Positions 36,705 through 59,925 of a stretch of 64,000 nucleotides of DNA are shown here, piece after piece. This stretch comes from Calditrichia bacterium. Lineage in GTDB: Bacteria; Calditrichota; Calditrichia; JAJRVZ01. The notes beneath the pieces were generated by a model. That model saw nothing but the letters and a program-made list of their open reading frames with translations. It was not told where the DNA came from and searched no databases. Positions within the stretch are counted from its first letter, which is position 1. Each line of letters starts with the position of its first letter. The stretch is taken from NCBI GenBank assembly GCA_963777955.1, contig CAVZSQ010000017.1, positions 128,001-192,000 on the forward strand, read 5' to 3'. A program made the translations under genes and the position numbers.

Positions 36705-39141
36705 ATGGCTACTGGTGAAAAAATTATACCGACCATGATCGAAGATGAGATGCGGAATTCGTATCTCGATTATTCCATGTCGGTCATCGTATCGCGGGCT
36801 TTGCCTGATGTGCGTGATGGGCTGAAACCGGTCCACCGCCGTATTTTATATGCTATGCGCGAGTTGGGCCTGGCCTACAACCGTCCGTATAAAAAAAGCG
36901 CCAGGATTGTCGGCGAGGTGCTGGGCAAATATCACCCTCATGGCGACACGGCGGTATATGATGCCATTGTACGCATGACCCAGGATTTTTCACTGCGTAA
37001 TCCGCTGATTGACGGCCAGGGAAATTTTGGTTCTGTGGACGGGGATTCCCCGGCGGCCATGCGCTACACCGAGATACGTCTGGCCCGGATCGCCGAAGAG
37101 ATGCTGCGCGACCTGGACAAGAATACAGTAAATTTTACGCCTAATTTTGATGATACCCTGAAAGAACCGTCCATACTTCCGGCCGCCCTGCCGAATATCC
37201 TGATCAACGGCTCGTCCGGAATTGCCGTCGGTATGGCCACCAATATACCCCCGCACAATTTAGCCGAAGTGGTGGATGGTATTCATGCGCTGATCGATCA
37301 GCCCGATCTGGAGGTCGCGAAATTATTAAAGTATATCAAAGGTCCCGACTTCCCTACCGGCGGAATTATTTTTGGTTATGAAGGGATAAAAGAAGCACTG
37401 CAGACCGGCCGCGGGCGCGTAATCGTCCGGGCGCGGGCCAATGTGGAAGTGACCCGCAACGGGCGTGAGAATATTATTATTACCGAAATACCGTACCAGG
37501 TCAACAAGGCCAATTTAATCGAAAAAATTGCCGAGCTGGTACAGGCAAAAAAAGTGGAAGGCATTTCGGATATCCGGGATGAATCGGACCGCGACGGTAT
37601 GCGGATTGTCATCGAGTTGAAGCGCGATGTCGATGCCAAGGCCGTGTTGAATTTTCTCTATAAGCACAGCCAGATGCAGGATACCTTCGGCATTATTATG
37701 CTGGCCCTGGTCAAAGGGCAACCGAAGGTATTAAATCTGAAAGAGATATTACAGAGTTATATCGATCATCGTCATGAAGTGGTGGTGCGCCGGACCAAAT
37801 TTGACCTGGATGAAGCGGAAAAACGCGCCCATATTTTAGAGGGACTTAAAATTGCACTGGACAATATCGATGAGATTATCGAGCTGATCAAGAAATCCAA
37901 GGATGTGGAAACAGCACAGCGCAATTTGATGAATAAATTCAAATTGTCCGAACTTCAGGCCAGGGCCATCCTGGAGATGCGCCTGCAGCGACTGACCGGT
38001 CTGGAACGGAAGAAGATCGAAGAAGAGTATCGTGAAGTTCTGAAATTGATTGAAAAGCTGAAAGCGATTCTGGCTAACCGCGGATTACGCATGCAGATCA
38101 TCAAGGATGAACTGAGCGAGATGAAAGAACGCTATGGGGACGAGCGTAAAACTGAAATTATCCGTGATTACCAGGACCTGACGGTCGAAGACATGATCGC
38201 CGAAGAGGATATGGTCATCACCATATCGCACCGCGGCAGTATCAAGAGGTTCCCGGTCAGCGGATACCGCCGGCAAAATCGCGGCGGTAAAGGATCCACC
38301 GGTGCCACCACCCGCGAGGAAGATTTTATCGAGCACATGTTTATCGCCAGCACGCATAATTATATTTTGTTCTTTACCGACAAGGGTCGCTGCTACTGGT
38401 TAAAGGTTCATGAAATTCCCCAGGCCGGCAAGGCTTCCAAGGGGCGCCCGATTGTGAATCTGATCGATATTGAAAAAGGGGAGAACATCCGGGCTTTTGT
38501 GGCGGTCAAGACTTTCGAAGATGAAGGATTCATTGTCTGCGCCACCAAGAAAGGTATCATTAAGAAGACTGAATTGAGCGCTTTCAGCCGGCCGCGTAAA
38601 GGGGGCATCCTGGCCATTACCATACGTGAAAAAGACGAGTTGATCGAGGCTAAACTTTCCGAAGGTAAAAATGACGTCATCCTGGTAACCCGCAACGGTT
38701 ATTCTATCCGTTTTAACGAACAGGAAGTGCGGGATATGGGCCGGACCGCTAGCCGGGGTCAAAGGGGTGACCCTGCGCAAAGATGATTGCGTCATCGGTA
38801 TGGTGATCGTGAAGAGAGAAGACACCTTGCTGACCGTTACTGAAAAAGGCATGGGCAAACGCAGTGATGTAAGTGATTACCGCAGGCAAAGCAGGGGCGG
38901 TAAAGGTATCATCGTGATGAAAATAAACGTCAAGACCGGTAAAGTGGTGAATGTTTTAAATGTGGTTGACAATGAGGATATCATCCTGATTACGGAAAAA
39001 GGGGTGGTGATGCGGCAGCATATTGCAAAAATTTCCGTAACCGGACGTAATACACAGGGAGTGCATTTAATCAAACTGTCCGGAAACGATAAACTCGGCG
39101 ATGTGGCCAAGATTGTCATGGGCGAAGAAGAGGAAGAATAA
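36705..39141 (+). CDS. gyrA: DNA gyrase subunit A, split by apparent +1 frameshift at ~38750
   Basis: [22 protein letters not shown], GyrA box QNRGGKG; C-terminal blades continue in 38767-39141. Confidence 0.95.
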
Positions 39142-43965: not shown

Positions 43966-45210
43966 TTACAAATTTTCTGCTGCGGAGCGGACATTTTCAA
44001 AACTGATTCTGAAAGTTGTTCCTTCCCCTAAACGAGTTTCCTTGATAAAAAGTTTCCCTTTATGATAATCTTCGATGATCCTTTTGGCTAAACTTAAGCC
44101 CAATCCCCAGCCGCGGGTCTTGGTGCTGAATCCGGGTTTAAACACATTCTGCTTATCGCGCGGATTGATCCCCTTGCCATTGTCTTTGACGTCGATATAA
44201 ACAAAGCGGCGGTCGGCAGACTGCCTGAGCGAGAGAATGATTTCACCATTCTGGCCTTCAATGGCATCCAGGGCATTCTTGATTAAATTTTCGATGACCC
44301 ATTCGAACAATTCACTATTTATGCTGATGGAAGCTTCGTATGTAAAATCTTCCCTGATGAATACTTTTTTATTCAGTTTGGGCAGACGCTTGCGGTAATA
44401 GATCACGGCATTACGCAGAATCGGTACGATGGGCCGCAATTTTACAGCGGGCCTGGAACCAATCTGCGAAAAACGGGAGGCAATTTTGGTAAGCCGCTTG
44501 GTATCAACTTCAATTTCCGGCAAGATCTGCTCTAATTTTTCCGGTTCTTCCTTGAGAATTTCTATCCAGCCATTGAGCGAAGATATGGGGGTGCCCAGTT
44601 GATGGGCAGTCTCCTTGGACATACCGACCCAGATATTGCGCTGTTCGCTTCTCTTGATCTGTGAAAAGCCGATGTAACCGATCAGCACGAAAAGCATAAA
44701 AGCGATAATTTCAATATATGGCAACCAGCGCAGTTTTTCGATTACCGGTGAAACGCCATAGTGGTAATAACCAAGTTTGAGGCCCTGATAGGTGATGGAA
44801 ATGGGCTGGTTTTCACGATCCATGTTTTTTACCCTGGCGGATAAAATTTCGATAGCCGGCGGGGTCAGAATACGCAGGGTATCCAGAGCGGAGCCCAGGT
44901 TTTTGCAAAATTGCGGTACCATCAGCGTATCGGTGTAGATGATGGGGTAGTCTGTTCCCTGAATTACCTCGGTAAAGAAAAATCCGAAATCCTGGTCAGT
45001 AGACGGACTGTTGATATTCTCCTCAAAAATGCGGATCCGGAAGCGCAGGTATTCGCGCGACTTTTCCTCGAGTATATTGACCAGGTGCTGGGTATAAAGC
45101 AGGAAAACGCCGATCAGGATCAGACCGAAGATGAATAAAAATCCTTTAAAACTTCCCTTCTGCCGGTACAGCTCTTTGTTATTTGATTTTTCCATATTTG
45201 TTACCATCAC
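43966..45210 (-). CDS. Sensor histidine kinase (no cognate regulator in window)
   Basis: Two TM helices, ETAHQLGTP H-box, NLIKNA N-box, DNGKG, GWGLGL. Confidence 0.92.
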   Translation of the reverse strand: MMVTNMEKSNNKELYRQKGSFKGFLFIFGLILIGVFLLYTQHLVNILEEKSREYLRFRIRIFEENINSPSTDQDFGFFFTEVIQGTDYPIIYTDTLMVPQFCKNLGSALDTLRILTPPAIEILSARVKNMDRENQPISITYQGLKLGYYHYGVSPVIEKLRWLPYIEIIAFMLFVLIGYIGFSQIKRSEQRNIWVGMSKETAHQLGTPISSLNGWIEILKEEPEKLEQILPEIEVDTKRLTKIASRFSQIGSRPAVKLRPIVPILRNAVIYYRKRLPKLNKKVFIREDFTYEASISINSELFEWVIENLIKNALDAIEGQNGEIILSLRQSADRRFVYIDVKDNGKGINPRDKQNVFKPGFSTKTRGWGLGLSLAKRIIEDYHKGKLFIKETRLGEGTTFRISFENVRSAAENL

Positions 45211-46285: not shown

Positions 46286-46750
46286 TTACATTAATTTTTT
46301 TAAATCGTCCAGAATTTCACGGGAATGTCCGTTTACATCAACTTTGGCATAAATTTTGGCAATTTTCTGTGCGGGATCGATCAGAAAAGTCGTCCGCTGG
46401 ATGCCCATATAGGTTTTGCCGTACATGGATTTTTCTTTCCAGACGTCATAGGCTTCGGCAACTTTATCCTGTTCGTCACTGAGCAGCGGGAAGGGCAGAG
46501 TATACTTATTGATAAATTTTTCATGCTGCCGGCTGCTGTCTTTGCTGATACCCAGAATAATTACGTTTTGCTGCGTGAAGGCGCTATAATCATCACGGAA
46601 ATTACAGGCCTCGGTGGTACAGCCGGGGGTCATATCCTTAGGATAAAAATAGAGCACGATCCATTTTCCTTTATACTCTGCCAGTTTATGTACTTTACCA
46701 TTCTGGTCAGGCAGAGCGAATGCTGGGGCCGCCTTACCTTCCTGTATCAT
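46286..46750 (-). CDS. bcp: Peroxiredoxin BCP/PrxQ
   Basis: YFYPKDMTPGCTTEAC. Confidence 0.95.
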   Translation of the reverse strand: MIQEGKAAPAFALPDQNGKVHKLAEYKGKWIVLYFYPKDMTPGCTTEACNFRDDYSAFTQQNVIILGISKDSSRQHEKFINKYTLPFPLLSDEQDKVAEAYDVWKEKSMYGKTYMGIQRTTFLIDPAQKIAKIYAKVDVNGHSREILDDLKKLM

Positions 46751-47129: not shown

Positions 47130-49340
47130 ATGAGAATAAACCGAAGGTATTTTAGAATTTTTAAGTCCGGTAGTTACGGCCGTTTTCCGGTTGTGAAGCA
47201 GCATGATCGCAGCGATTGCGGTCCGGCTGCGCTGTTAAGTGTGCTGCGCTACTACAGGGGCGACAGCAATATGGCCCGCCTGAGGGAATTATGCCATACC
47301 GGCAGCGAGGGGAGCACCATGTTTGATTTGATTGAAGCGGCCCGCCGGCTGGGTTTCGAGGCCAGCGGTGTTCGCGGTGAATATACCGATCTGCTGCGGG
47401 AAAAAATGCCCTGTATTGCCCATGTGGTCAAGGATGAAAAGTACACCCATTATGTTGTCATCTATGCGCTCAATCGGAAGCGTGTGCTGCTGGGGGATCC
47501 GGCGCGGGGATTATATAAATTATCCCGGGCCCGGTTCAACAGGATCTGGCAGCAGCAGGCAATTATCCTGCTGAGACCCCGTACTGCACTTTTTAAGCAA
47601 AGCACTCCGGTCTGGTTTGAATGGTTGTGGCCCTATCTGAATCATTATAAATCGTGGATCGCTCAAGCGGTCTTCCTGGGAATTGTCTATTCTGTTTTAA
47701 GCCTGATTATGGCTGTGTTTGTGCAAAAAATAATAGATGTATTTATTCCTGCAGCTGATATCAGCAGGATTACGATCAGCGGTATCTTGCTGGTTTTTTT
47801 AATCTCATTGAAAAGTGTGCTGGGATATTTCCGGCAATTTTTTTTGGTCTCGCTGAACGACAAACTCGGTCTGCGGCTGAACTCTGATTTTATTGACCAT
47901 GTATTGCGCCTGCCCAGACGCCTGCTGGACATTTACCGGGCCGGGGATATCACCTCGCGTCTCTATGATATCATCAGGATACAGCAGGGGGTGGTACAGA
48001 TTATTGGGATCACGATTATAGACCTGATGATCCTGGCTGGTTCGTTAGCCCTGATTTTTGCCTTCTCGTTTAAGATCGCTTTAATTACGCTGCTGGCCAT
48101 GCTGGTCTATACACTGTTTCTGCTGCTCAACCTGAAGAACCTGAACCATAAACAGCATGCACTGCTGCAATCATTCTCCGAAGTGCAGTCGATCTTCATC
48201 AATACGATCCAGGGTTTTGATGAAATTCTCAACTATAATGCTGCCGGTTTTTTCAGTGATAAAAATTGTTTCACCTTCGGTCAGTACCAGCAGCACCTGA
48301 AGTTACTGGGTTTACTGCGATCAAAACTGGCCGGTGCTGCCGAGCAATTGGGAAGTATGATGATGCTGGCCCTGCTGATCAGCGGCGCGGTCTGGGTCAT
48401 CAGGGAGGGACTTTTACTGGGACAATTGATGGCTTGTTATTCGCTGCTGGCCGGTATTATCCCCGCCCTGAACCGGCTGGTGGAAGGATCAGTGTCCTGG
48501 CAGGTCACGGCCATCGCTGTGCAACGGATTTTAGATTTAGTGCAGATGGACAAAGAAAAAGGTACAGGGCAGCTGATCTGTGAGCCTATCCAAAGCATCG
48601 CGGTCAGAGATGCGGGCTTTCAATGGTCCGCCCGTAAGCATCTCCTCGAGAATGTGTTTCTTGACCTGCAGCGGGGCAAGATCACTGCCTTGTGGGGTCC
48701 CATCGGTTCGGGGAAGAGCACCCTGATGCAGATCCTGCAGAGAAAATATCAGTTGGCAGCGGGAGAGATTCTCAGCAACGACCGGCCCGCAACTGAATTT
48801 GATCTTCATCTTTACCGGGAAAAAATCGGCATCGTGCCCCAGCAAGTAAAGGTCTTCGACGGCACCCTGGCCGAGAACATACTGCTGGGCCGCCGGATTG
48901 CGGACAGGGAAAAATTCAATCACCTGTTGTACCAATATGGATTCGCTGATTATGCCCGGAAATTTGAGCAGGGGTTGCTCACCGTGCTGGGAGAAAACGG
49001 GCGGCACCTGTCGGGCGGCGAATTGCAGATGCTGGGCTTAGCCCGTGCTTTGCTGTTTGAACCGGACGTACTGATGATCGATGAAGGGCTGAATGCCCTG
49101 GATGCGGAGATGGAGAAAACAGTTTTTAAAATAATTCAACAGTATGCCCTGACCCATCCGGTGCTGATCAGCACTCATAATTTAGCCATGATCACCCGGG
49201 TGGATTATGTGTATGTCCTGGACCAGGGCAGGATTGTGCAGTCCGGCACCCCGGCCTGCTTATTGATCCGGGACGGATATTTCAAAAATGTCTGGCTGAC
49301 GTGGAGAAGTAATCTTAACAGGGTTTATTGCCCGGTTTAA
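47130..49340 (+). CDS. Peptidase-containing ABC transporter (C39 PCAT; bacteriocin exporter/maturase)
   Basis: QHDRSDCGPAAL (catalytic Cys), HYVV, GDPA; TM domain; GPIGSGKS, LSGGE, MIDE. Confidence 0.93.
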   Translation: MRINRRYFRIFKSGSYGRFPVVKQHDRSDCGPAALLSVLRYYRGDSNMARLRELCHTGSEGSTMFDLIEAARRLGFEASGVRGEYTDLLREKMPCIAHVVKDEKYTHYVVIYALNRKRVLLGDPARGLYKLSRARFNRIWQQQAIILLRPRTALFKQSTPVWFEWLWPYLNHYKSWIAQAVFLGIVYSVLSLIMAVFVQKIIDVFIPAADISRITISGILLVFLISLKSVLGYFRQFFLVSLNDKLGLRLNSDFIDHVLRLPRRLLDIYRAGDITSRLYDIIRIQQGVVQIIGITIIDLMILAGSLALIFAFSFKIALITLLAMLVYTLFLLLNLKNLNHKQHALLQSFSEVQSIFINTIQGFDEILNYNAAGFFSDKNCFTFGQYQQHLKLLGLLRSKLAGAAEQLGSMMMLALLISGAVWVIREGLLLGQLMACYSLLAGIIPALNRLVEGSVSWQVTAIAVQRILDLVQMDKEKGTGQLICEPIQSIAVRDAGFQWSARKHLLENVFLDLQRGKITALWGPIGSGKSTLMQILQRKYQLAAGEILSNDRPATEFDLHLYREKIGIVPQQVKVFDGTLAENILLGRRIADREKFNHLLYQYGFADYARKFEQGLLTVLGENGRHLSGGELQMLGLARALLFEPDVLMIDEGLNALDAEMEKTVFKIIQQYALTHPVLISTHNLAMITRVDYVYVLDQGRIVQSGTPACLLIRDGYFKNVWLTWRSNLNRVYCPV

Positions 49341-49349
49341 GGGGAGTAG

Positions 49350-50024
49350 ATGGTTAACAGTATGGATCGTCCGCTGTGGATGCGGATGCAAAGCATAACT
49401 AACTGGCAGATATTCGCTGCGCTGATGGGAATTAATGTATTGTTAATCTGGCTGGTCAGGGAACAGGTTCTCCGTTCCGAATTCATTTATCAGCTTTTCC
49501 AGGAACAGATCGAGATAACCCGCCTGGACGATCAACTGGAACTGTGGCGGGGCTGGTTTAACCTGAATTTTATCCTGGTACCCCTGGTTCTTTTTATAAA
49601 ATTCTGTTTTATATCTTTTGTGCTGCAATTCCCGCTGTTGTTCCTGCTGGAAGATATCGCTTACCGGGATATTTTCAGGGTGGTCATGATCGCCCAGCTG
49701 GCCATGCTCGCCGCGGCGATCTTCCAGGTGGCTATTTTATACCTGAGACCACTGCCGGCAATCGATATGGAAAACCTGGGCCGCATGCCGTTAAGTCTGG
49801 CCGGCCTGACCGGGCAATATTCAGCTTTATCCATTCCGGCCAGGACGATCATCAACCGCTTTAATGTGTTTGAACTGATCTGGTGTATGATCGTCTATTA
49901 TAAACTTAAATCTCTGGTCACGATGAAAAGCGTCGATCTGGTTATCCTGGTCAGTGCTGTATGGATTTTTTTACTAATCCTGCAATGGCTGAGCACGGAA
50001 GTATTAATGTTGTTGAGCAGCTGA
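49350..50024 (+). CDS. Multi-pass membrane protein in bacteriocin locus (Yip1-like; candidate immunity/accessory)
   Basis: About 5 hydrophobic segments, NVFELIW motif; between PCAT and redoxin. Confidence 0.65.
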   Translation: MVNSMDRPLWMRMQSITNWQIFAALMGINVLLIWLVREQVLRSEFIYQLFQEQIEITRLDDQLELWRGWFNLNFILVPLVLFIKFCFISFVLQFPLLFLLEDIAYRDIFRVVMIAQLAMLAAAIFQVAILYLRPLPAIDMENLGRMPLSLAGLTGQYSALSIPARTIINRFNVFELIWCMIVYYKLKSLVTMKSVDLVILVSAVWIFLLILQWLSTEVLMLLSS

Positions 50025-50068
50025 GTTGTGATCCGGTTTTTGGATGATATTGATTAAGGGAGAAGATC

Positions 50069-50575
50069 ATGAAAGAAAAACAATTCTTTGTACTGGCGCT
50101 GCTGATTGCTGCTATAATCATCCTGGCGTTTTTTTGGATCGAACAGCACCGGAAAAAAATTCTGAAAGTCGGGGAAAGTATACCGGCAATGAATTATCAA
50201 ACCCGGGATGGACAACAGCTGCTGTCGGCAGACAGTACCCGGGTACTGGTACTGATGTATTTTAACCGGAAGTGCGAGTATTGCCTGTATCAACTGGAAT
50301 TGTTTGAAAAGAATATAGGGATCTTCCGTAATCAGAGATTCGTGTTTCTGACCAGCGAGGCGGATTTTTTTTCGGCGGGATTGGAAAAACAGTGGAGTAT
50401 GCTCAGCAGCCGGGAGAACTGCAGTTTCGGAATGGTTCCCGGCAATGTATTTTTGAATGCATTTGGCACGAGCAGCACCCCGGCGATTTTCATATTCAGT
50501 AACCGGGGTTTGCTGCTGGCCAATTTTAACAGTGTGATTAAACTGGACAAAATCAAACAGGTACTGGGGGTATGA
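50069..50575 (+). CDS. Membrane-anchored thioredoxin-fold (TlpA/redoxin) protein
   Basis: N-terminal TM helix, VGESIP..DG, YFNRKCEYC (CxxC), STPAIFIF cis-Pro loop. Confidence 0.85.
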   Translation: MKEKQFFVLALLIAAIIILAFFWIEQHRKKILKVGESIPAMNYQTRDGQQLLSADSTRVLVLMYFNRKCEYCLYQLELFEKNIGIFRNQRFVFLTSEADFFSAGLEKQWSMLSSRENCSFGMVPGNVFLNAFGTSSTPAIFIFSNRGLLLANFNSVIKLDKIKQVLGV

Positions 50576-50657
50576 TCATCAGTATGAAGCTAACACCGGT
50601 TTAATAAATACCCTTACCGGGGGGTAATAAAATAATGATCAAAGATTGGAGGTAGGT

Positions 50658-50852
50658 ATGCAGGAATTAACCAATGAAAGATTGCTGGCCTTGCAGGGAG
50701 GCCAAAAAGCAGCTGTAGGCGGGGCCTGTGCCATGTTCCTGATGGAATTAACCATCGTATTGGGGGCCGGGGTCATCCTGGGGGGCGCCGGAGCTGCTTT
50801 CGGCCTGGGTTTTGTAGTGGGTGCTCTGGCCTCGGAATCTAATCCCTGTTAA
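50658..50852 (+). CDS. Double-glycine-leader bacteriocin precursor 1
   Basis: GGAGG SD; leader MQELTNERLLALQGG; 49-aa hydrophobic Gly/Ala-rich core with Cys9 and Cys49. Confidence 0.85.
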   Translation: MQELTNERLLALQGGQKAAVGGACAMFLMELTIVLGAGVILGGAGAAFGLGFVVGALASESNPC

Positions 50853-50884
50853 CAACAATGAACTCAGAAAAGGAGGAAAGTAAG

Positions 50885-51106
50885 ATGGATGCAGCATGTT
50901 TAAAAGGAAATTTGATCGAATTAGATCAGAACGATCAGCTCAGTATCAGCGGCGGAAATAAAATCGCGGCTTTCGTCGACGGCCTCTGCGTGGTTTATGG
51001 TACCTATGCCGTGCTCGGCCTGGTGATTCCGGGCATAAATGCGGTCGGTGCCAGCACGTTAGGTGCATTCTGTGCCGGATATAAACTGGCCAGCTGGCTT
51101 TTATAA
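50885..51106 (+). CDS. Double-glycine-leader bacteriocin precursor 2
   Basis: AAGGAGG SD; leader ..IELDQNDQLSISGG; 49-aa hydrophobic core with Cys11 and Cys39. Confidence 0.85.
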   Translation: MDAACLKGNLIELDQNDQLSISGGNKIAAFVDGLCVVYGTYAVLGLVIPGINAVGASTLGAFCAGYKLASWLL

Positions 51107-51119
51107 TAATCTTAACTGA

Positions 51120-51211
51120 TTCAGCGTCCTTGGCGTATACCTTTGCGAACTCTGCGGTTAGAAAGCTCTCCGACGCAAAGGGCGCAGAGGTAACGCCAAG
51201 GTCGCAATGAG
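51120..51211. repeat. CGCAAAG-family hairpin element downstream of the precursor genes
   Basis: cttggcgtatacctttgcg...cgcagaggtaacgccaag inverted arms. Confidence 0.7.
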
Positions 51212-51232
51212 AAACTCTACTGAAAACCGAAT

Positions 51233-51955
51233 ATGTTACAATTGATTTCTGTATCAAAAAGATATGCTGATGTGCTTGCACTGGATAATATCAATGTCAA
51301 TCTGGCCGCGGGACAGATTGTAGGCCTGATCGGCCCTAATGGCGCCGGCAAGACCACCCTGTTGCGGATTATCGGTACGATCCTGCGGGCCAGTCACGGA
51401 AAGGTATTATATAATGGGACCGATATTCAAACCGCTGCGGTAGAATATCGCGGCAAAATCGGCTATGTGCCGGAAGACGGCGGATTATATCTTAAATTGA
51501 CCCCCTTACAGAATTTAATGTTTTACAGATCATTTTATCATGAAGCCATCCCCCCGGCTGTGATTCGGGATTGTCTGCGGGAGTATGGATTGGAGCAGGA
51601 GCAGAATAAACAGACCGGCAAATTGTCCAAAGGCACCCGGCAAAAAATTCTGTTTCTCAAAGCGATTCTGAACCATCCCGAATTACTGATCCTGGATGAA
51701 CCGTTAAATTACCTGGACCCGGAGACCAGGATCAGCGTAAAGGAGAAATTAAAGGAATTGAGCGCCGCGGGGAAACTGGTGCTGCTCAGCAGTCACACCC
51801 TGGCCGAGGTGGAAGATCTGTGTACCACAATTATAATAATCCGCCAGGGTAGAATCCTGACCTGCACCTCTCTGCTGGAGCTTAAACAAAAATGTGCAGT
51901 AGCGGCAGAGCAGTCGCTGGAAAAAATTTACTTACGGATCATCGGATCGACATGA
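51233..51955 (+). CDS. ABC transporter ATP-binding protein (ABC-2/immunity type)
   Basis: GPNGAGKT, LSKG, LILDEP, SSH. Confidence 0.9.
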   Translation: MLQLISVSKRYADVLALDNINVNLAAGQIVGLIGPNGAGKTTLLRIIGTILRASHGKVLYNGTDIQTAAVEYRGKIGYVPEDGGLYLKLTPLQNLMFYRSFYHEAIPPAVIRDCLREYGLEQEQNKQTGKLSKGTRQKILFLKAILNHPELLILDEPLNYLDPETRISVKEKLKELSAAGKLVLLSSHTLAEVEDLCTTIIIIRQGRILTCTSLLELKQKCAVAAEQSLEKIYLRIIGST

Positions 51956-52735
51956 GCATAAAAAACATCAGACAACTGGCCTGGTTAGAGTGGCTGGAAC
52001 ACCGCAAACGCATCCTGGGCAGTATCCCGGTTTTATTGTTTTTCTCTGTTCCCGGATTTTTGCTGCCTTTGATCAGTAAAAGGGATCTAGATTCAGAATT
52101 AATCGGGAGGTACCTGCAGCAGTATCAACTATTATATTCAGTCTTTGTCCCAATCCGAGTTGCAGCAGATTATCATGATCGATTTCAGATTAACGGTAAT
52201 GGTCCTGACCGCCGCGCTGATCAGTCCTTTCCTGGGTATATTGGACAGTATCGGCAGCGAGAAGGAGGGCCGGACCATTGAGAATTTATTGGTTTTACCG
52301 CTGAGCGATGCGGAAATTATCAGCGGTAAAATCGTGACCTGCTGGCTGGCCGGGATTCTGCTCTCCTGGTTATTATGGCTGCTTTATTTCCTGTTTATGC
52401 TGTGGTATTCCACGCCGCCGGCCGCATTTCATCTGCTGAGCGGCAGCTGGCTGATCCTGGTAGCGCTGCTGGTACCGGCCGCAGGTCTGTTTATGAACCT
52501 GCTGGGTATAATTATTGCCGTGCTGGTGCAAAAAATACAGACCGGATACAATCTGGGCTTCCTGCTGGTATTCCCCCTGGCCCTGCTGCTGACCATGCTG
52601 GGATTTGGCCTGTACCGGTTGAATCTCACAAATGTAATGTTTGCCTCAGGTCTGTTCGCCCTGCTGGATGCGATGTTGTTTAAAGTTGCGTATAATATTT
52701 TCAACAGGGAAAAGATTATGTTGAGGTATAAATAA
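51952..52735 (+). CDS. ABC-2-type permease, split by apparent +1 frameshift at ~52142
   Basis: ATGA overlap with the ATPase; EKEGRTIENLLVLPLS..IISGK motif; removing T52142 joins the frames (YSALSQSE). Confidence 0.8.
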
Positions 52736-53132: not shown

Positions 53133-53195
53133 TATCGGGTACATGTACGAGTGGATGCACGAGTACATGTATTCAGGAACTTAAAGGAGGGAAAT

Positions 53196-53924
53196 ATGGA
53201 GGTTACTCAACCCGTACAGGGGCAGCAGGAAGCTAAACTGCCTTTTTTGACCAAGCTGGTTCTGCTTTTTACCAATCCCGCTAAACTTTTTGCCAATTTA
53301 AAACTATATCCTGATTGGCTGATACCAATTATCATAATTATAGTTTGTTCAATCGGCAGCGCCTGGATAAATCAGGATCTGATCAAGCAGAGACAGATAG
53401 ACAAGATCTCAAAATGGGAACAAGTGCCTGATGAGCAAAGAGAGGCGGCAATTCAAAAAACCGAGGAAAGCGGTATAATCAGCACTACTGTCGGAATAAC
53501 CGTTTTTACTTTCGTTATCTTCCTTTTCGTCTCGTTGCTTTTCTGGGTCAGCGGGAATTTTGTATTTGGCGGTTCTGCAAAATTTGTATCCGTACTCTCG
53601 GTATATACCTGGGGTTCACTGACCTTCATACCGGAAGAAATCATTAAAACTATCCTGAGGGGTGTGCGGAGTACTTATGATGTATACTCCAGCCTGGCCT
53701 TATTAATGGATCCGGAACAATCGAAAACAGTATTATTCAAGTTAGCCAATGCCATCGATATATTTTCCATCTGGCGCCTGTTTTTATGGGGATTAGGGTT
53801 AAGCATAATTTATAATTTTACCAGGGGCAAATCATACGGGATAGTTATTTTCTGGTATGTATTCGGTGTCCTGATCTGGATAGGACTGACCTTGTTAATA
53901 CCCTGGTTAGAAATGTTTATTTAA
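53196..53924 (+). CDS. Yip1-domain membrane protein (YknW-like)
   Basis: LFTNPAKLF..PDWLIP, FGGSAKF, IDIFSIW; AAGGAGG SD before ATG 53196. Confidence 0.85.
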   Translation: MEVTQPVQGQQEAKLPFLTKLVLLFTNPAKLFANLKLYPDWLIPIIIIIVCSIGSAWINQDLIKQRQIDKISKWEQVPDEQREAAIQKTEESGIISTTVGITVFTFVIFLFVSLLFWVSGNFVFGGSAKFVSVLSVYTWGSLTFIPEEIIKTILRGVRSTYDVYSSLALLMDPEQSKTVLFKLANAIDIFSIWRLFLWGLGLSIIYNFTRGKSYGIVIFWYVFGVLIWIGLTLLIPWLEMFI

Positions 53925-54028
53925 GAATAATCAGGTGTGCAAAGCGGATGAAGGAAGAAATTCATATTGAAAGATGTTACTCAGAATACAGCCGGAATTA
54001 TAAGAAATAATTTTAAGGAGATTTACTG

Positions 54029-55402
54029 ATGAAGCAGATCATAGGCATGTTAAGCGTGGTACTCTTATTTACTGGTATGGGTTTCGCCCAATCCGCGGCT
54101 CTGTCATTGGAAGAATGTGTGGCCATCGCCTTAAAAAATAATACGACTTTAATCACCACCCGTAATGATGCGCTTAGCGCCAGGAAAGATGTTTTATCTT
54201 CGTATGGCGGAATAATGCCCACCATCGATGCCAGCGCCAGAAAAGGCCGCTATAAAGCCGGTGAAGCCACCGACATGCGTGATGTTCTTGTTGGTGTAGA
54301 TTCCCTGACCGGAAATCCTATTCTGGAGAGAAGACTTATAGTGCAGGAAGGTTTCACCGTAAATTCTAATGATGTGAACTTCAGTGTCAATCAGAATATT
54401 TTTGACGGCGGGGAATGGTGGAATGCGATCGGGTATGCCAGATCACAAAAGACCTGGTCTGAATTAAATTTAACCTCGGTTACCAATACGGTTATTATGA
54501 ACGTGCAACAGGCCTATTTTGATTTATACCGCCAGCAGAAATTACTGGAAGTATACGATCTGGCTGTGAAACGCAGCCAGGATCAACTGGATAAAACTCA
54601 AAAAATGTTCGACCTGGGTGCCGTGGCCAAAGTCAATGTCTTCCGCAGCAAGGTCAACCTGGGCAATGACAAGATCCAGTACCTGGCCCAGCAGAACCTG
54701 GTAATGACGGCCAAAAACAATTTAAACATGGTCATGGGACGGCAGCCGGCTGAGGCGCTGGAAATTGTCCCCGAAATTTCGCTGAAACCAGGTTATAAAA
54801 ATGTAGATGAACTTTATCAGCAGGCGCTGGAAAATAATCCGGAATTGAAAATGTACCGGCAGAATGTCCGCAGTAATGAATTGCTGGTGGCGCGCAGTAA
54901 GAGTCCCATGTGGCCCAGAGTGGGGGCAGGATTTAATTACAGCCGTTCCAATGAGGATATGCAGAGAGTATATTCCGACTTTGACCGCAACTGGGGTTAT
55001 TCGGTGGGAGTTTCCCTGTCGATGAACCTGTTCAACGGTTTCAGGGACATGGTCAATATCCAGAAGAGTAAACTGACGCTTAAAAACAGCATGGAAAACT
55101 ACGAATACAACAAAAAAAATCTGATTGCCAGCGTTATGCAGTACGCCGATAATTATAATTCCTATATGGATATCATAACGATTAATGAAGAAAACCTGGA
55201 AGCTTCCAAAGAAGAATACCGCCTGGCTGAAGAGCGTTACCGCATCGGCTCGGGGACTCAACTGGAAGTGCGCGAGGCGCAGGTGAATCTGACCCGGGCC
55301 GAACAGACCCTGGTGGCAGCCAAATATTATGCCCGCATCACCCAGGCCCAGATCGAACAGGCGCTGGGTAATATTCAGCAAAACGTGCAGGAGAACAATT
55401 AA
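54029..55402 (+). CDS. tolC: TolC-family outer-membrane efflux protein
   Basis: Signal peptide, LSLEECVAIALKNN, NIFDGG, ERYRIGSGTQLEV. Confidence 0.9.
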   Translation: MKQIIGMLSVVLLFTGMGFAQSAALSLEECVAIALKNNTTLITTRNDALSARKDVLSSYGGIMPTIDASARKGRYKAGEATDMRDVLVGVDSLTGNPILERRLIVQEGFTVNSNDVNFSVNQNIFDGGEWWNAIGYARSQKTWSELNLTSVTNTVIMNVQQAYFDLYRQQKLLEVYDLAVKRSQDQLDKTQKMFDLGAVAKVNVFRSKVNLGNDKIQYLAQQNLVMTAKNNLNMVMGRQPAEALEIVPEISLKPGYKNVDELYQQALENNPELKMYRQNVRSNELLVARSKSPMWPRVGAGFNYSRSNEDMQRVYSDFDRNWGYSVGVSLSMNLFNGFRDMVNIQKSKLTLKNSMENYEYNKKNLIASVMQYADNYNSYMDIITINEENLEASKEEYRLAEERYRIGSGTQLEVREAQVNLTRAEQTLVAAKYYARITQAQIEQALGNIQQNVQENN

Positions 55403-56673
55403 TGAAAAAGATCATCATCGGTGCAGCCATAGCTGCGGTCGTTATTTTTTTTATTCTGATCAATGTCCTGAAAAAAGATAAAGGTATAGAGGTAGATTCT
55501 GAAAAAGTTCAGCAGGGAACACTGATCCAGAAAGTTTCCGGTTCAGGACAGATCCGGCCGGAAGTACAGGTCAAGGTAAGTTCCCGGGTGGCGGGCAAGA
55601 TACTGAAACTGCACGCCAAGGAAGGGGACAGGGTCAAGAAAGGCGCTTTACTGGTGGAACTGGACCAGGAACAGTACCGGGCCGCCCTGGACCGGGCCAG
55701 TTATAACCTGGATTATATGATCGCCAGCGAGAAAAAGTTGAAGAGCGACCTGGTGCGGGCGGTGGACCTGCACAATAAAGGGCTGTTGTCCCAGGCCGAG
55801 TTCGAAGCGGCGCAGGCCTCGGCTGATGCCGCAGTCAGCAGTACCAACCAGGCCCGGGCCAGCAAGGCGGAGGCGCAGGACCAGCTGTCCAAGACCCGCC
55901 TGTACGCCGATATGGACGGGATCGTGACCAAGTTGAATAAGGAAGAGGGGGAAATGACCCTCGGCTCGCAATTCCAGGAAGACGTGATCATGATCGTGGC
56001 CGACCTTTCCAAGATGGAAGCGGCCATCGAGGTGGATGAAAACGATGTGGTCAATATTTCGCTGGGGGATTCGGCGGCTATCGAAGTGGATGCTTTCGGT
56101 GACACAACCCTGAACGGCCGGGTGAGCGAGATCGCCAACAGCGCCACGATTAAAAATCTGGGAACCCAGGAACAGGTCACTAATTTTGAAGTGGTCGTAT
56201 CGCTGCAGGATTATAATGCCAGACTCCGGCCGGGTATGAGTACCACGGTCGATATTATCACCGAAGTGAAGAATAACGTGCTGAAAATTCCCATCCAGGC
56301 GGTTACGGTACGGGAGAAGGATAAACTGGAAAAAAAACCGGCGGTTGAACAGCCGGTAGAAAAAGAGAAGGAAGAAACAACCCAGGCTGACGGTTCGGCC
56401 GACAAAGCAGCCAAAGAAAAACAGAACATGAAGGAAGTCGTTTTTTGCGTGGAAGAAAGTAAAGCCGTGATTAAAGCGGTGCAACTGGGCATCTCCGATG
56501 ATTCCTATTATGAAGTTATTTCCGGCCTGGAAACAGGCCAGAGCGTGGTTACCGGACCTTTCCGGATTCTCAGTAAAACCCTGAAAGACGGCGATCTGCT
56601 CAAGATTAAAGCGGAAGGCAAGAAAGCATCGGCGGAAAGTAATAACGACCGCACCACTGCCGAAGCGGAGTGA
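55402..56673 (+). CDS. Efflux periplasmic adaptor (MacA/YknX-like MFP)
   Basis: N-terminal anchor, lipoyl halves (EGDRVKKG..; DMDGIV), LRPGMS. Confidence 0.9.
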
Positions 56674-56725
56674 ACATAGTTCAGGAGCACGGCAAATAAT
56701 AAATTTAAGCAAGAGGAAACAAGGT

Positions 56726-57409
56726 ATGCTGATTGAAGTAAAGGATCTGAAGAAAACCTATACCCTGGGCGAGAATATCGAAGTTCCCGCGCTGCGGGGG
56801 ATCAATATGACTATCGATAAAAATGAATACCTGGCCATCATGGGCCCCTCCGGCTCGGGCAAATCCACCCTGATGAATATCATCGGTTGCCTGGACGTGC
56901 CCAGCGAGGGGAGTTATATTCTCAACGCGCATGATGTCAGCCAGATGAGCGATGACGAGCTGGCCGTGATCAGGAACCGGCAGATCGGCTTTGTGTTCCA
57001 GACCTTCAATCTGCTGCCGCGGGCCAATTCGCTGCATAACGTGGAGTTGCCGTTGATTTACAGCGGCGTGAACCGGGGGGTTCGCCGCAACCTGGCCAAA
57101 GAGGCGCTGGAACGGGTGGGACTGGCCGACCGCATGTTCCATAAACCCAATGAACTTTCGGGCGGGCAGCGGCAGCGGGTGGCTATCGCCCGGGCGCTGG
57201 TCAATAATCCGGCCATCATCCTGGCCGATGAACCGACCGGTAACCTGGATTCCAATACCGGCGAGGAGATCATGGAAATTTTCGAACAACTGCACAAGGC
57301 CGGCAATACCATTGTACTGATCACGCATGAGGAATATATCGCCAAGCACAGCAAGCGGGTTATCAAACTGCTGGACGGCCTGGTTCAATCCGACGAGAAA
57401 TTGAATTAG
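56726..57409 (+). CDS. MacB/YknY-type ABC ATPase
   Basis: [43 protein letters not shown]. Confidence 0.95.
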
Positions 57410-57444
57410 CGATTAATCTGAAATTCAGAAAAAGAAAATAGATT

Positions 57445-58683
57445 ATGTATACTTTTACCGTAATCGGCGAATACCTGCTGATGGCCTGGCAGGCTTTGAG
57501 TACGCACAAGATGCGTTCGATCCTGACCACCCTGGGCATCCTGATCGGTGTGACTACCATTATCACTATTTTCACCGCCATTCAGGGTATTAATGAATAT
57601 ATAATGGGTTCACTGGCCAAGATAGGTTCCTCAACTGTTTACGTGGATAAAATGCCCTGGGTATTTGACGAGAACTGGTGGAAATACCGTAACCGCCGGG
57701 AGATCACCTACAGTGAATACGAAGCGCTGCAGAAATATTCCACCGAAGCGGATTATATTGCACCGTCTGTATTCAGCATGAAAAAACTCAGATATAAAAA
57801 AGAGATCTACGACCAGATACCGGTAGTAGGCACCAACGAGGAATACAAGGATACCGATAATGTCAATCCGGCCGAAGGACGCTTTCTGACCGAACTGGAT
57901 GTAAGCCGCAATCACAAAGTTTGTGTGATTGGCCAGGATATAAAAACCAAACTGTTTAAAGACGAAGATCCCCTGGGCAAACGGATTAAAATCGGTGATG
58001 ATAAGTATATAGTTGTCGGGGTCAACGAAAAGCAGGGTAATGTATTAGGGATGAGCATAGATAATATTGTCATCGTGCCGATCGGCACTTTCCGGCGGGT
58101 ATTCGGCGGCTGGGAACACGAAAGCCGCGGCCTGACCATTTCCCTGAACGTGACGGATGTATCCCGGATCGAAGCGATGAAAGACGAAGCGCGGGGCATC
58201 CTGCGCCGGGTGCGCAAAGTGGCTGCGGCCGATGATGACGACTTTGCCCTGAACCAGATGGACCAGCTGACCGAATTGTACCGCAAATTGACCGGCACCC
58301 TGTACATGATCATTTTCGTGATCGGCGGCGTATCGCTGGTGGTAGGGGGTATCGGCATCACCAATATCATGCTGGTCAGCGTGACTGAGCGTACCAAGGA
58401 AATCGGCATCCGTAAAGCGATCGGCGCCAAACAGCGCAACATACTCTCCCAGTTCCTGATTGAAGCGGTCGCTATCTCCTCGGTGGGGGGTATCCTGGGT
58501 ATTATCCTGGGTTATCTGGGGGGGAATGCCGTGCTGTCGTTGATGAATTTATCAACCGGCATCAGCCTGGCCTCTGTCCTGATCGGTTTTGGCTTTTCGA
58601 CTTTCGTGGGGGTAGTGGCGGGCTTCTACCCGGCCTGGAAGGGTGCGCGCATGAATCCGATTGATTCGCTGCATTATGAATAA
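57445..58683 (+). CDS. MacB/FtsX-family ABC permease
   Basis: RSILTTLGILIG, GITNIMLVSVTERTKEIGIRKAIGA. Confidence 0.93.
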   Translation: MYTFTVIGEYLLMAWQALSTHKMRSILTTLGILIGVTTIITIFTAIQGINEYIMGSLAKIGSSTVYVDKMPWVFDENWWKYRNRREITYSEYEALQKYSTEADYIAPSVFSMKKLRYKKEIYDQIPVVGTNEEYKDTDNVNPAEGRFLTELDVSRNHKVCVIGQDIKTKLFKDEDPLGKRIKIGDDKYIVVGVNEKQGNVLGMSIDNIVIVPIGTFRRVFGGWEHESRGLTISLNVTDVSRIEAMKDEARGILRRVRKVAAADDDDFALNQMDQLTELYRKLTGTLYMIIFVIGGVSLVVGGIGITNIMLVSVTERTKEIGIRKAIGAKQRNILSQFLIEAVAISSVGGILGIILGYLGGNAVLSLMNLSTGISLASVLIGFGFSTFVGVVAGFYPAWKGARMNPIDSLHYE

Positions 58684-58689
58684 GGATAT

Positions 58690-59925
58690 TTGCTAATGTA
58701 TATTCAGGAAAATCTGGCGGTTGCCTGGACGCAACTGAGAGGGAGCAAGTTAAGGTCGATTCTGACCATCCTGGGTATTTCCATCGGCATCATGACGGTT
58801 ATCCTGATTGTCTCGGTGCTGGAAGGGTACCGCCAGAATATAACCCGTGAATTACAGGGATTAGGAGCCAATGTTTTCCAGGTGGAAAAGTTTGACCGTA
58901 ATCCCGGTATCCATGTGGGTCATGAACAGCGCGAATACCGCAAGGATTTGTTGAAAGAGTACGCCGTGGAACTAAGGGAAAGATGCCCGGCGGTCAGGTT
59001 TGTCGGGGCTGAAGTCTGGTATTACAATATTGCGATCCATTATAAAGATAAGAAAACCAATCCCACTTATTACCTGGCCGGCGGCGAACCGGAATATTTT
59101 GTGAACAATGCCGAACCGGTGGGGTATGGCCGGGCCCTGCTGCGCAGCGATGTGGAATCCAATGCCAAGGTGGCGGTGCTGGGCCTGGATATTGTCAATG
59201 AACTTTTTCCGCACGAAGACCCGCTGGGTAAATTCGTCAGAATTTCCGGTACGAAATTTAAAGTGATCGGCACTTTTGAAAAGATGGGTACAGCGACCTT
59301 CGGCCGCAGCAAGGACAACAAGGCGGTCATACCGATCACCGCTTACGAAGATATTTTCGGCCGGGAGCGTTCGGTTTACCTGACCGTGCAGGCTGAGGAT
59401 GTCGAGCACATGGAAGAAGCCAAGGCCCAGGTGACCGGTGTGCTGCGGCAGATACGCAAGATACCGCCGGGCAAGGAGAACGATTTTGAAATCTGGTCAA
59501 ATGACTCGCTGATCGAATCCTTCAACGATACCGCCAGGATAATCCAGATGGGCGGAATAGCGATCGGGCTGATTTCATTGTTAGTGGGCAGTATCGGCGT
59601 GATGAATATAATGCTGGTGACCGTCACCGAGCGGACGCGGGAGATCGGGGTGCGCAAGGCTCTGGGTGCGCGGCGCCGGGTAATTTTAACCCAGTTTTTA
59701 AGTGAATCGATTTTTCTGAGCCTGATCGGGGGAATGATCGGGCTGCTGCTGGGAGTGCTGCTGGCTTTACTGGTCAGTTCTTTATTCAAAATGCCTTTTG
59801 CCATTCCGCTGTGGGCTGTGCTGGCTTCTCTGGGCGTGACTACCGCGGTCGGACTGGTAGCCGGCGTTTATCCCGCGGCCAAGGCGTCAAAACTGGATCC
59901 GATTGTGGCGCTCCGTTATGAGTAA
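58690..59925 (+). CDS. MacB/FtsX-family ABC permease (second subunit)
   Basis: RSILTILGISIG, GVMNIMLVTVTERTREIGVRKALGA. Confidence 0.93.
   Translation: MLMYIQENLAVAWTQLRGSKLRSILTILGISIGIMTVILIVSVLEGYRQNITRELQGLGANVFQVEKFDRNPGIHVGHEQREYRKDLLKEYAVELRERCPAVRFVGAEVWYYNIAIHYKDKKTNPTYYLAGGEPEYFVNNAEPVGYGRALLRSDVESNAKVAVLGLDIVNELFPHEDPLGKFVRISGTKFKVIGTFEKMGTATFGRSKDNKAVIPITAYEDIFGRERSVYLTVQAEDVEHMEEAKAQVTGVLRQIRKIPPGKENDFEIWSNDSLIESFNDTARIIQMGGIAIGLISLLVGSIGVMNIMLVTVTERTREIGVRKALGARRRVILTQFLSESIFLSLIGGMIGLLLGVLLALLVSSLFKMPFAIPLWAVLASLGVTTAVGLVAGVYPAAKASKLDPIVALRYE

Follow-up and report, generated by a model that had tools for sequence, protein, structure and literature searches.

A putative disulfide-hairpin two-peptide bacteriocin cassette in a family of Calditrichota

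What does a Gram-negative bacterium make and export when two small adjacent genes for double-glycine (GG) leader peptides lie beside a peptidase-containing ATP-binding cassette (ABC) transporter (PCAT) and a redoxin? The locus that raises this question lies in a 64,000-nucleotide (nt) stretch of DNA from a Calditrichia bacterium (positions 128,001-192,000 of contig CAVZSQ010000017.1, assembly GCA_963777955.1), referred to here as the window. Open reading frame (ORF) calling places seven co-directional genes on the plus strand at 47130-52735. The original prediction had named this block as PCAT, membrane protein, CxxC redoxin, two small ORFs with strong Shine-Dalgarno (SD) sequences and GG leaders, ABC ATPase and permease. 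We find the same order, SDs and leaders. It had also placed the host among Gram-negative bacteria of the Fibrobacteres-Chlorobi-Bacteroidetes (FCB) lineage, which is right; the nearest PCAT relative, 80% identical, comes from an uncultured member of the Calditrichota. We hold it to be just on the probable side that this cassette encodes an unmodified, membrane-acting bacteriocin made up of two peptides and belonging to the gallocin A-like disulfide-hairpin type, with self-protection by an ABC-2 exporter. The genes of the cassette are:

47130-49340, plus strand: PCAT of 736 amino acids (aa) with C39 peptidase, transmembrane and nucleotide-binding domains (PF03412, E 2.6e-35; PF00664; PF00005)
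49350-50024, plus strand: Yip1/YknW-like accessory membrane protein of 224 aa, present in one copy and assigned by matches of its homolog family
50069-50575, plus strand: membrane-anchored CxxC redoxin, 168 aa, TlpA/ResA/StoA-like (weak Pfam matches, conserved Cys and Pro)
50658-50852, plus strand: precursor peptide 1, 15-aa GG leader (50658-50702) and 49-aa core (SD, dN/dS, Cys)
50885-51106, plus strand: precursor peptide 2, 24-aa GG leader (50885-50956) and 49-aa core (SD, dN/dS, Cys)
51233-51955, plus strand: ABC-2-type ATPase, candidate self-protection or release exporter (PF00005, E 5.5e-29)
51952-52735, plus strand: ABC-2 permease with a +1 frameshift near 52142 (PF12679/PF12698)

Are the two small ORFs genes? 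We checked whether they are conserved near homologous PCATs, and homologs do occupy the corresponding place in related loci. Peptide 1 gave dN/dS values of 0.065-0.078 (two usable pairs; two more were saturated) and peptide 2 values of 0.24-0.29 (three pairs), the core being lower than the leader. Since homologs exist, keep their position and have low dN/dS, the ORFs are more than chance reading frames; judged from their sequences, both are real genes under purifying selection. A leader filter derived from the two peptides passed 3 of 14,899 ORFs, two of them peptides 1 and 2, which is weak evidence given that derivation. Upstream of the start of peptide 2, the in-frame ATG at 50858 has no SD, and a promoter scan stayed at chance level (12 versus 11.5).

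The peptide 1 core carries Cys9 and a C-terminal Cys49, a net charge of -1, a grand average of hydropathy (GRAVY) of 1.27 and three GxxxG motifs; that of peptide 2 carries Cys11 and Cys39, a net charge of +1 and a GRAVY of 1.22. Small-xxx-small motifs are visible in the peptide sequence. Together with their homologs, the cores span 37-50 aa, GRAVY 0.8-1.3 and net charges of -2 to +1. Both core cysteines are invariant in 7 of 7 aligned peptide 1 sequences and in 10 of 10 for peptide 2, and exactly two core cysteines occur in all 13 divergent peptides examined. Halfway between the cysteines, glycine and proline are enriched (24 observed versus 13.2 in shuffled sequences, p 0.0009, 12 cores; kinship among the cores overstates the significance), as expected of a disulfide-closed helical hairpin.

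How widely is this arrangement kept? A search with the membrane protein found the cassette in 6 of 86 Calditrichota genomes, all belonging to the window's family, in which 10 genomes were searched and four lack it. We denote genomes of the phylum set by G-numbers, loci or contig stretches by L-numbers and sequencing runs by X-numbers. A match in G079 was not counted as a seventh genome; it overlaps a core Yip1 gene. Type A cassettes (G000, G001, G002 and L004, with partial copies in L001-L003) keep the gene order of the window and, wherever the flanks are in view, sit between two neighbours:

46286-46750, minus strand: bcp/AhpC peroxiredoxin, flanking the insertion site on the left (PF00578, E 1.5e-44)
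53196-59925, plus strand: core operon outside the cassette, comprising YknW/Yip1, TolC, periplasmic adaptor, MacB-type ATPase and two MacB-type permeases

In G006 and G009 the site is empty and bcp lies directly beside Yip1, the spacing being 282 nt in G006 versus 6,446 in the window. The cassette resembles the neighbouring genes in GC content at third codon positions, and no informative repeats were found at its ends. Type B cassettes (G004, G007 and G008) carry different peptides and permeases; G004 and G007 have a second peptide pair in common, and a MauE gene is additionally present in G004 and G008. Of the 9 loci in which the peptide region can be seen, 8 carry a peptide pair, its order being preserved in two peptide sets that look unrelated, and on this evidence two-component action is plausible. 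All cassettes seen have the ABC-2 exporter, and none has a small immunity gene or an HlyD-type adaptor.

In G007 the cassette is interrupted after the PCAT and before the redoxin by putatively transposase-like ORFs (L016 707-1117; L040 1-277) that resemble IS200-type sequences. Type B genomes (L015, L035, L036), unlike other family members, have no YknW/Yip1 gene before tolC; their best matches lie elsewhere (E 1e-18) or are missing. The membrane proteins of type B cassettes score best on YknW_fam, and the cassette gene may have replaced the one before tolC.

We analyzed how such peptides could be processed. The PCAT is the sole C39 match in the genome. Its catalytic Cys/His/Asp, Walker A/B and signature motifs are all intact on inspection, and the best NCBIfam model, TIGR01193, stays below cut-off. 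The protein is predicted to cut the GG leaders and to carry the cores across the inner membrane. No HlyD match over cut-off was found in the genome, which is 92% complete (TIGR01843 came closest, with 42 bits versus a cut-off of 208.65). Nor did the search for disulfide-bond enzymes, which covered DsbB and VKOR, give a match there, and a dedicated oxidoreductase in the cassette fits this. The redoxin has only weak AhpC-TSA/thioredoxin Pfam matches, and its homologs match StoA/ResA below cut-off. It is anchored by a single hydrophobic segment at residues 6-24, and both CxxC cysteines and the proline at the cis-Pro position are invariant in 6 of 6 aligned homologs. It is likely that this protein is a periplasm-facing disulfide catalyst.

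The membrane protein has no direct Pfam or NCBIfam match and no match in the PDB, either by Foldseek or by sequence. Among its homologs, 20 of 110 match Yip1 and 35 of 110 match YknW_fam, and its profile also matches the core YknW gene at 53196; by these family matches it is Yip1/YknW-like. Its model is an all-helical bundle (predicted local distance difference test score 92.8). The family comprises 762 clusters at 50% identity, the nearest Atlas clusters being mostly from Bacteroidota. Viral contigs hold no relatives, and plasmids hold none of the window protein and one of a distant homolog.

From the genes, motifs, conservation and gene linkage, all observed directly, we infer a route of six steps. 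Because the PCAT has no HlyD partner, the cores cut after GG would be released into the periplasm. The anchored CxxC protein would then form the disulfides Cys9-Cys49 and Cys11-Cys39, which would fix each core in the shape of a hydrophobic helical hairpin. Third, the Yip1-like protein may aid handling or release, by analogy to the bacteroidetocin transmembrane (TM) protein needed for activity. To leave the cell, the peptides might use the adjacent MacAB-TolC-type pump, or else lysis or vesicles. In the fifth step the two hairpins would form a pair within the membranes of related bacteria and make these permeable; in the last, the ABC-2 exporter would clear peptide from the producer membrane, replacing a small immunity protein. 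Steps four and six are the two weakest. The original prediction's reading of a PCAT-exported peptide system, Cys-bridged and without modification, in a Gram-negative host has good support.

We compared the cassette to known systems. Disulfide-hairpin class IIb bacteriocins with a dedicated thioredoxin have been described for gallocin A, whose locus thioredoxin is needed for killing in co-culture (PMC10100652). The subgroup of gallocin A, brochocin C, thermophilin 13 as well as ABP-118 has long, weakly charged cores with two cysteines near the ends (PMC10100652, PMC10059821, PMC2850506). Like gallocin A (GllA1/GllA2, BlpT), our cassette has two adjacent GG-leader precursors, a PCAT and a thioredoxin-domain protein in the locus, and its cores are likewise long and weakly charged with two cysteines near the ends and a predicted hairpin; this likeness is one of description. 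Unlike that subgroup, it resides in a diderm host, has no small immunity peptide, pheromone/kinase/regulator or bacteriocin accessory protein, adds the Yip1-like protein and the ABC-2 exporter, and has a second peptide without GxxxG and no family model match.

Several observations, taken up here and in the paragraphs that follow, weigh against a gallocin-like pair. The original prediction had pointed to paired GxxxG-rich peptides, which holds for peptide 1; peptide 2 has no GxxxG in the window and zero to two in its homologs. It had also suggested searches with class IIb and lactobin A/cerein 7B-type models. No bacteriocin family model in Pfam or NCBIfam, PF10439 included, matched the window peptides. 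The best score for TIGR03949 (lactobin A/cerein 7B) was 12.3 bits versus a cut-off of 21.5, and a PDB sequence search returned no match for either peptide. On the supporting side, homologs come close to PF10439 (Bacteriocin_IIc), with at best 25.1 bits versus a cut-off of 27.1, and the Atlas clusters closest to peptide 1, at 0.89-0.93, are of class II/Blp bacteriocins, which is a lead only. Matches to NheB, TfuA and E492 were weak and below cut-off, and we rejected them as stray. There is also no cognate small immunity ORF: the 126-nt gap between peptide 2 and the ATPase contains no plus-strand ORF of at least 40 aa. One of the two could be the toxin, its partner serving as an exported antagonist or a mimic of immunity; the hairpin-shaped immunity peptide of gallocin is proposed to compete with the toxin. 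The missing immunity gene and the modelling of gallocin GIP as a similar hairpin (PMC10100652) speak for this. We consider it very unlikely, since both ORFs have a GG leader, two cysteines and selection on the core, and an ABC-2 exporter accompanies all cassettes seen.

Do the peptides act together? G008 has the same machinery with one peptide. A set of HlyD-less membrane protein, redoxin, PCAT and two-Cys GG peptide recurs on a Flammeovirga plasmid (profile comparison: membrane-protein homolog probability 99%, redoxin 93%); the recurrence speaks for the main reading, but this module too holds one peptide only. In a tree, the Flammeovirga PCAT groups with the Calditrichota PCATs, apart from HlyD-linked PCATs, with support 99/98; the tree comprises 13 hand-picked rows, the Flammeovirga branch is long and compositionally odd, and the clade is drawn without a formal test. 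Four PCAT loci on Bacteroidota plasmids are of the HlyD/TolC type and have no membrane-protein homolog. On two Bacteroidales plasmids (L042 979-3744; L043 2066-3661), about six unlike GG-leader peptides precede HlyD, PCAT and TolC. Genes for GLPGLI, LanC-like and glycosyltransferase proteins follow the Flammeovirga module (L046 11286-16555), and an export module of this type may serve modified peptides too.

A single-peptide arrangement is familiar from the bacteroidetocins, proposed as class IIf, which combine a PCAT, a TM protein, a thiol oxidoreductase and a Cys-containing GG peptide; the TM protein, called unknown, is required for activity, and outer-membrane crossing was left open (PMC6671954). 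Our cassette resembles them in its FCB-type Gram-negative host, the four-gene core, the 15-aa leader of peptide 1 and the lack of an adaptor or immunity protein in the core (PMC6671954), a likeness of layout by description, with charge and Cys number differing from bacteroidetocins A/B. Unlike the bacteroidetocin loci, it usually encodes two peptides, whose cores are longer, neutral or acidic and have two cysteines; it is chromosomal and inherited in the family, not on mobile elements, and has an extra ABC-2 exporter. On another reading, each disulfide peptide would act on its own against an envelope target such as an outer-membrane protein, in the manner of bacteroidetocins (class IIf) or class IIa microcins, the pair having arisen by duplication and neither peptide needing the other. 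This would account for the accessory layout shared with single-peptide bacteroidetocin loci (PMC6671954), for the single-peptide loci in G008 and Flammeovirga, and for the alignment of the peptide 1 and peptide 2 profiles (probability 81%, E 1.2e-5), to which leader and composition contribute; bacteroidetocins target BamA (PMC8546649). However, bacteroidetocins A/B are 42 aa long, basic and have four cysteines, whereas the cores described here range from neutral to acidic and are much more hydrophobic, and in each of two separate sets both peptides persist in the same order from genus to genus. We regard independent action as the less probable, though a serious, alternative to the two-peptide bacteriocin.

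The conservation of the cassette raises a further question. For fast-changing toxins, such strong conservation at one fixed place in the chromosome is less typical, and this, with the missing immunity peptide, would suit non-toxic secreted peptides, either signals or self-assembling surface or biofilm components. One study reportedly describes microcins that self-assemble in biofilms (PMC13188072). Against this, no receptor kinase or regulator occurs in any cassette seen, and the kinase at 43966 is also found at the empty site. The cores are long and membrane-like, pheromones being short, and the cassette is absent from 4 of the 10 family genomes searched (67-93% complete). A non-toxic role appears improbable to us.

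The redoxin, too, leaves room for another function: its TlpA-like fold could equally be compatible with a reductant, and the window cassette has no MauE and hence no MauE electron partner beside the redoxin, the two MauE genes of the genome both lying away from the cassette.

How could a gallocin-type pair leave a diderm cell? Class II microcins such as MccV exit in one step via PCAT, membrane fusion protein and TolC (PMC12219008, PMC10352776). Our cassette shares with them the Gram-negative host, GG leader, PCAT, unmodified hydrophobic core and, in some, a disulfide. Unlike them, it has no such adaptor, and none elsewhere in the genome scores above cut-off. A YknW-TolC-adaptor-MacB-type operon, directly downstream of the cassette, is a candidate route across the outer membrane or for protection. 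Disulfide peptides are taken up by MacB pumps from the extracytoplasmic side, and MacAB-TolC exports disulfide-bonded STII (PMC5985334). As in Bacillus YknWXYZ, the operon combines YknW, adaptor, ATPase and MacB permease, here with TolC added (PMC5985334). Unlike the YknWXYZ and STII cases, it is core to the phylum, and its tie to the peptides is adjacency in 5 of 6 genomes, G007 being the exception; its adaptor occurs in 10 of 10 family genomes and a Yip1 homolog in 75 of 86 phylum genomes. One ancestral insertion could lie behind the linkage. Just upstream of the Yip1 start, the window contains a 14-nt inverted repeat with a 4-nt gap (53140-53171), possibly an operator or hairpin. A bolder and rather doubtful scheme would be a two-step secretion of the gallocin-type pair, in which an HlyD-less PCAT delivers to the periplasm, the redoxin closes the disulfides and the Yip1/YknW protein recruits the MacAB-TolC pump, the PCAT-Yip1-redoxin module being a general FCB route.

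Is the cassette functional in this strain? The original prediction was right that an ABC ATPase and a permease are present; the permease, with its start at 51952, is interrupted near 52142 by the insertion of a single base. The nearest NCBIfam models of the ATPase are GldA, DrrA and lantibiotic protection, all below cut-off. The permease frameshift could signal a locus decaying in this strain. All other cassette genes are intact, however, and the permease is a single ORF in L004, L028 and L020 and across the frameshift site in L001. The extra base is absent from L001 and from three contigs of runs X6 and X11, one of them 156 nt long with a single mismatch. In the same window gyrA (36786-39123, plus strand) is frameshifted near 38752 relative to G006, and frameshift-like ABC ATPase and adaptor genes occur on C15 and C27; a third such row, an opposite-strand ORF of G006, was dropped. 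These cases suggest indel errors in the assembly. As the base is missing from these sequences and gyrA is frameshifted too, an assembly error is likelier than a real mutation, and decay seems highly improbable.

We rejected two further candidates. Circular bacteriocin clusters carry an SpoIIM/DUF95 membrane protein (PMC8659200), and neither the cassette proteins nor the 110 membrane-protein homologs gave a SpoIIM/DUF95 Pfam match, so we dropped a head-to-tail circular bacteriocin. A modified ribosomally synthesised peptide was set aside in view of the cassette having no modifying enzyme. Elsewhere in the phylum, another Calditrichota family has its own pair of PCATs, labelled NHLP-type by layout, together with an HlyD-like gene (L017, G034:C6). 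A further locus (L019, G010:C111, 2100-10452) holds a redoxin, a stand-alone C39 peptidase, an ABC ATPase and three ABC-2 permeases, together with two broken genes, a second C39 and a Yip1-like one; no precursor was identified there.

Where does the cassette belong? As in class IIb, two adjacent GG-leader precursor genes lie in one operon with a dedicated C39 ABC transporter, and the cognate small immunity protein next to the peptides is lacking. By its gene content the cassette is not a formal member of class IIb, PF10439 or the class II microcins: class IIb does not apply as there is no immunity peptide and synergy is predicted, the microcins as there is no adaptor. The novelty implied by the original prediction was overstated, since gallocin A (PMC10100652) and the bacteroidetocin layout (PMC6671954) had already been described. 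Each component is known; the novelty lies in the families to which the peptides belong, in their occurrence as a pair in a diderm, in the added ABC-2 exporter, and in the combination and host. In the open-access literature we found no report on this locus type or on a Gram-negative gallocin-like pair.

The cassette extends disulfide-hairpin peptide pairs, so far described from Gram-positive bacteria, to a little-studied Gram-negative phylum, and offers two new peptide sets that are easily synthesised and assayed. Its membrane protein can serve as a marker for mining HlyD-less peptide loci. The Yip1/YknW-like identity of this protein and the YknW-MacAB-TolC-type neighbour provide a handle on how bacteroidetocins cross the outer membrane; if the two-step secretion scheme were true, the module would explain both this crossing and the role of the bacteroidetocin TM protein.

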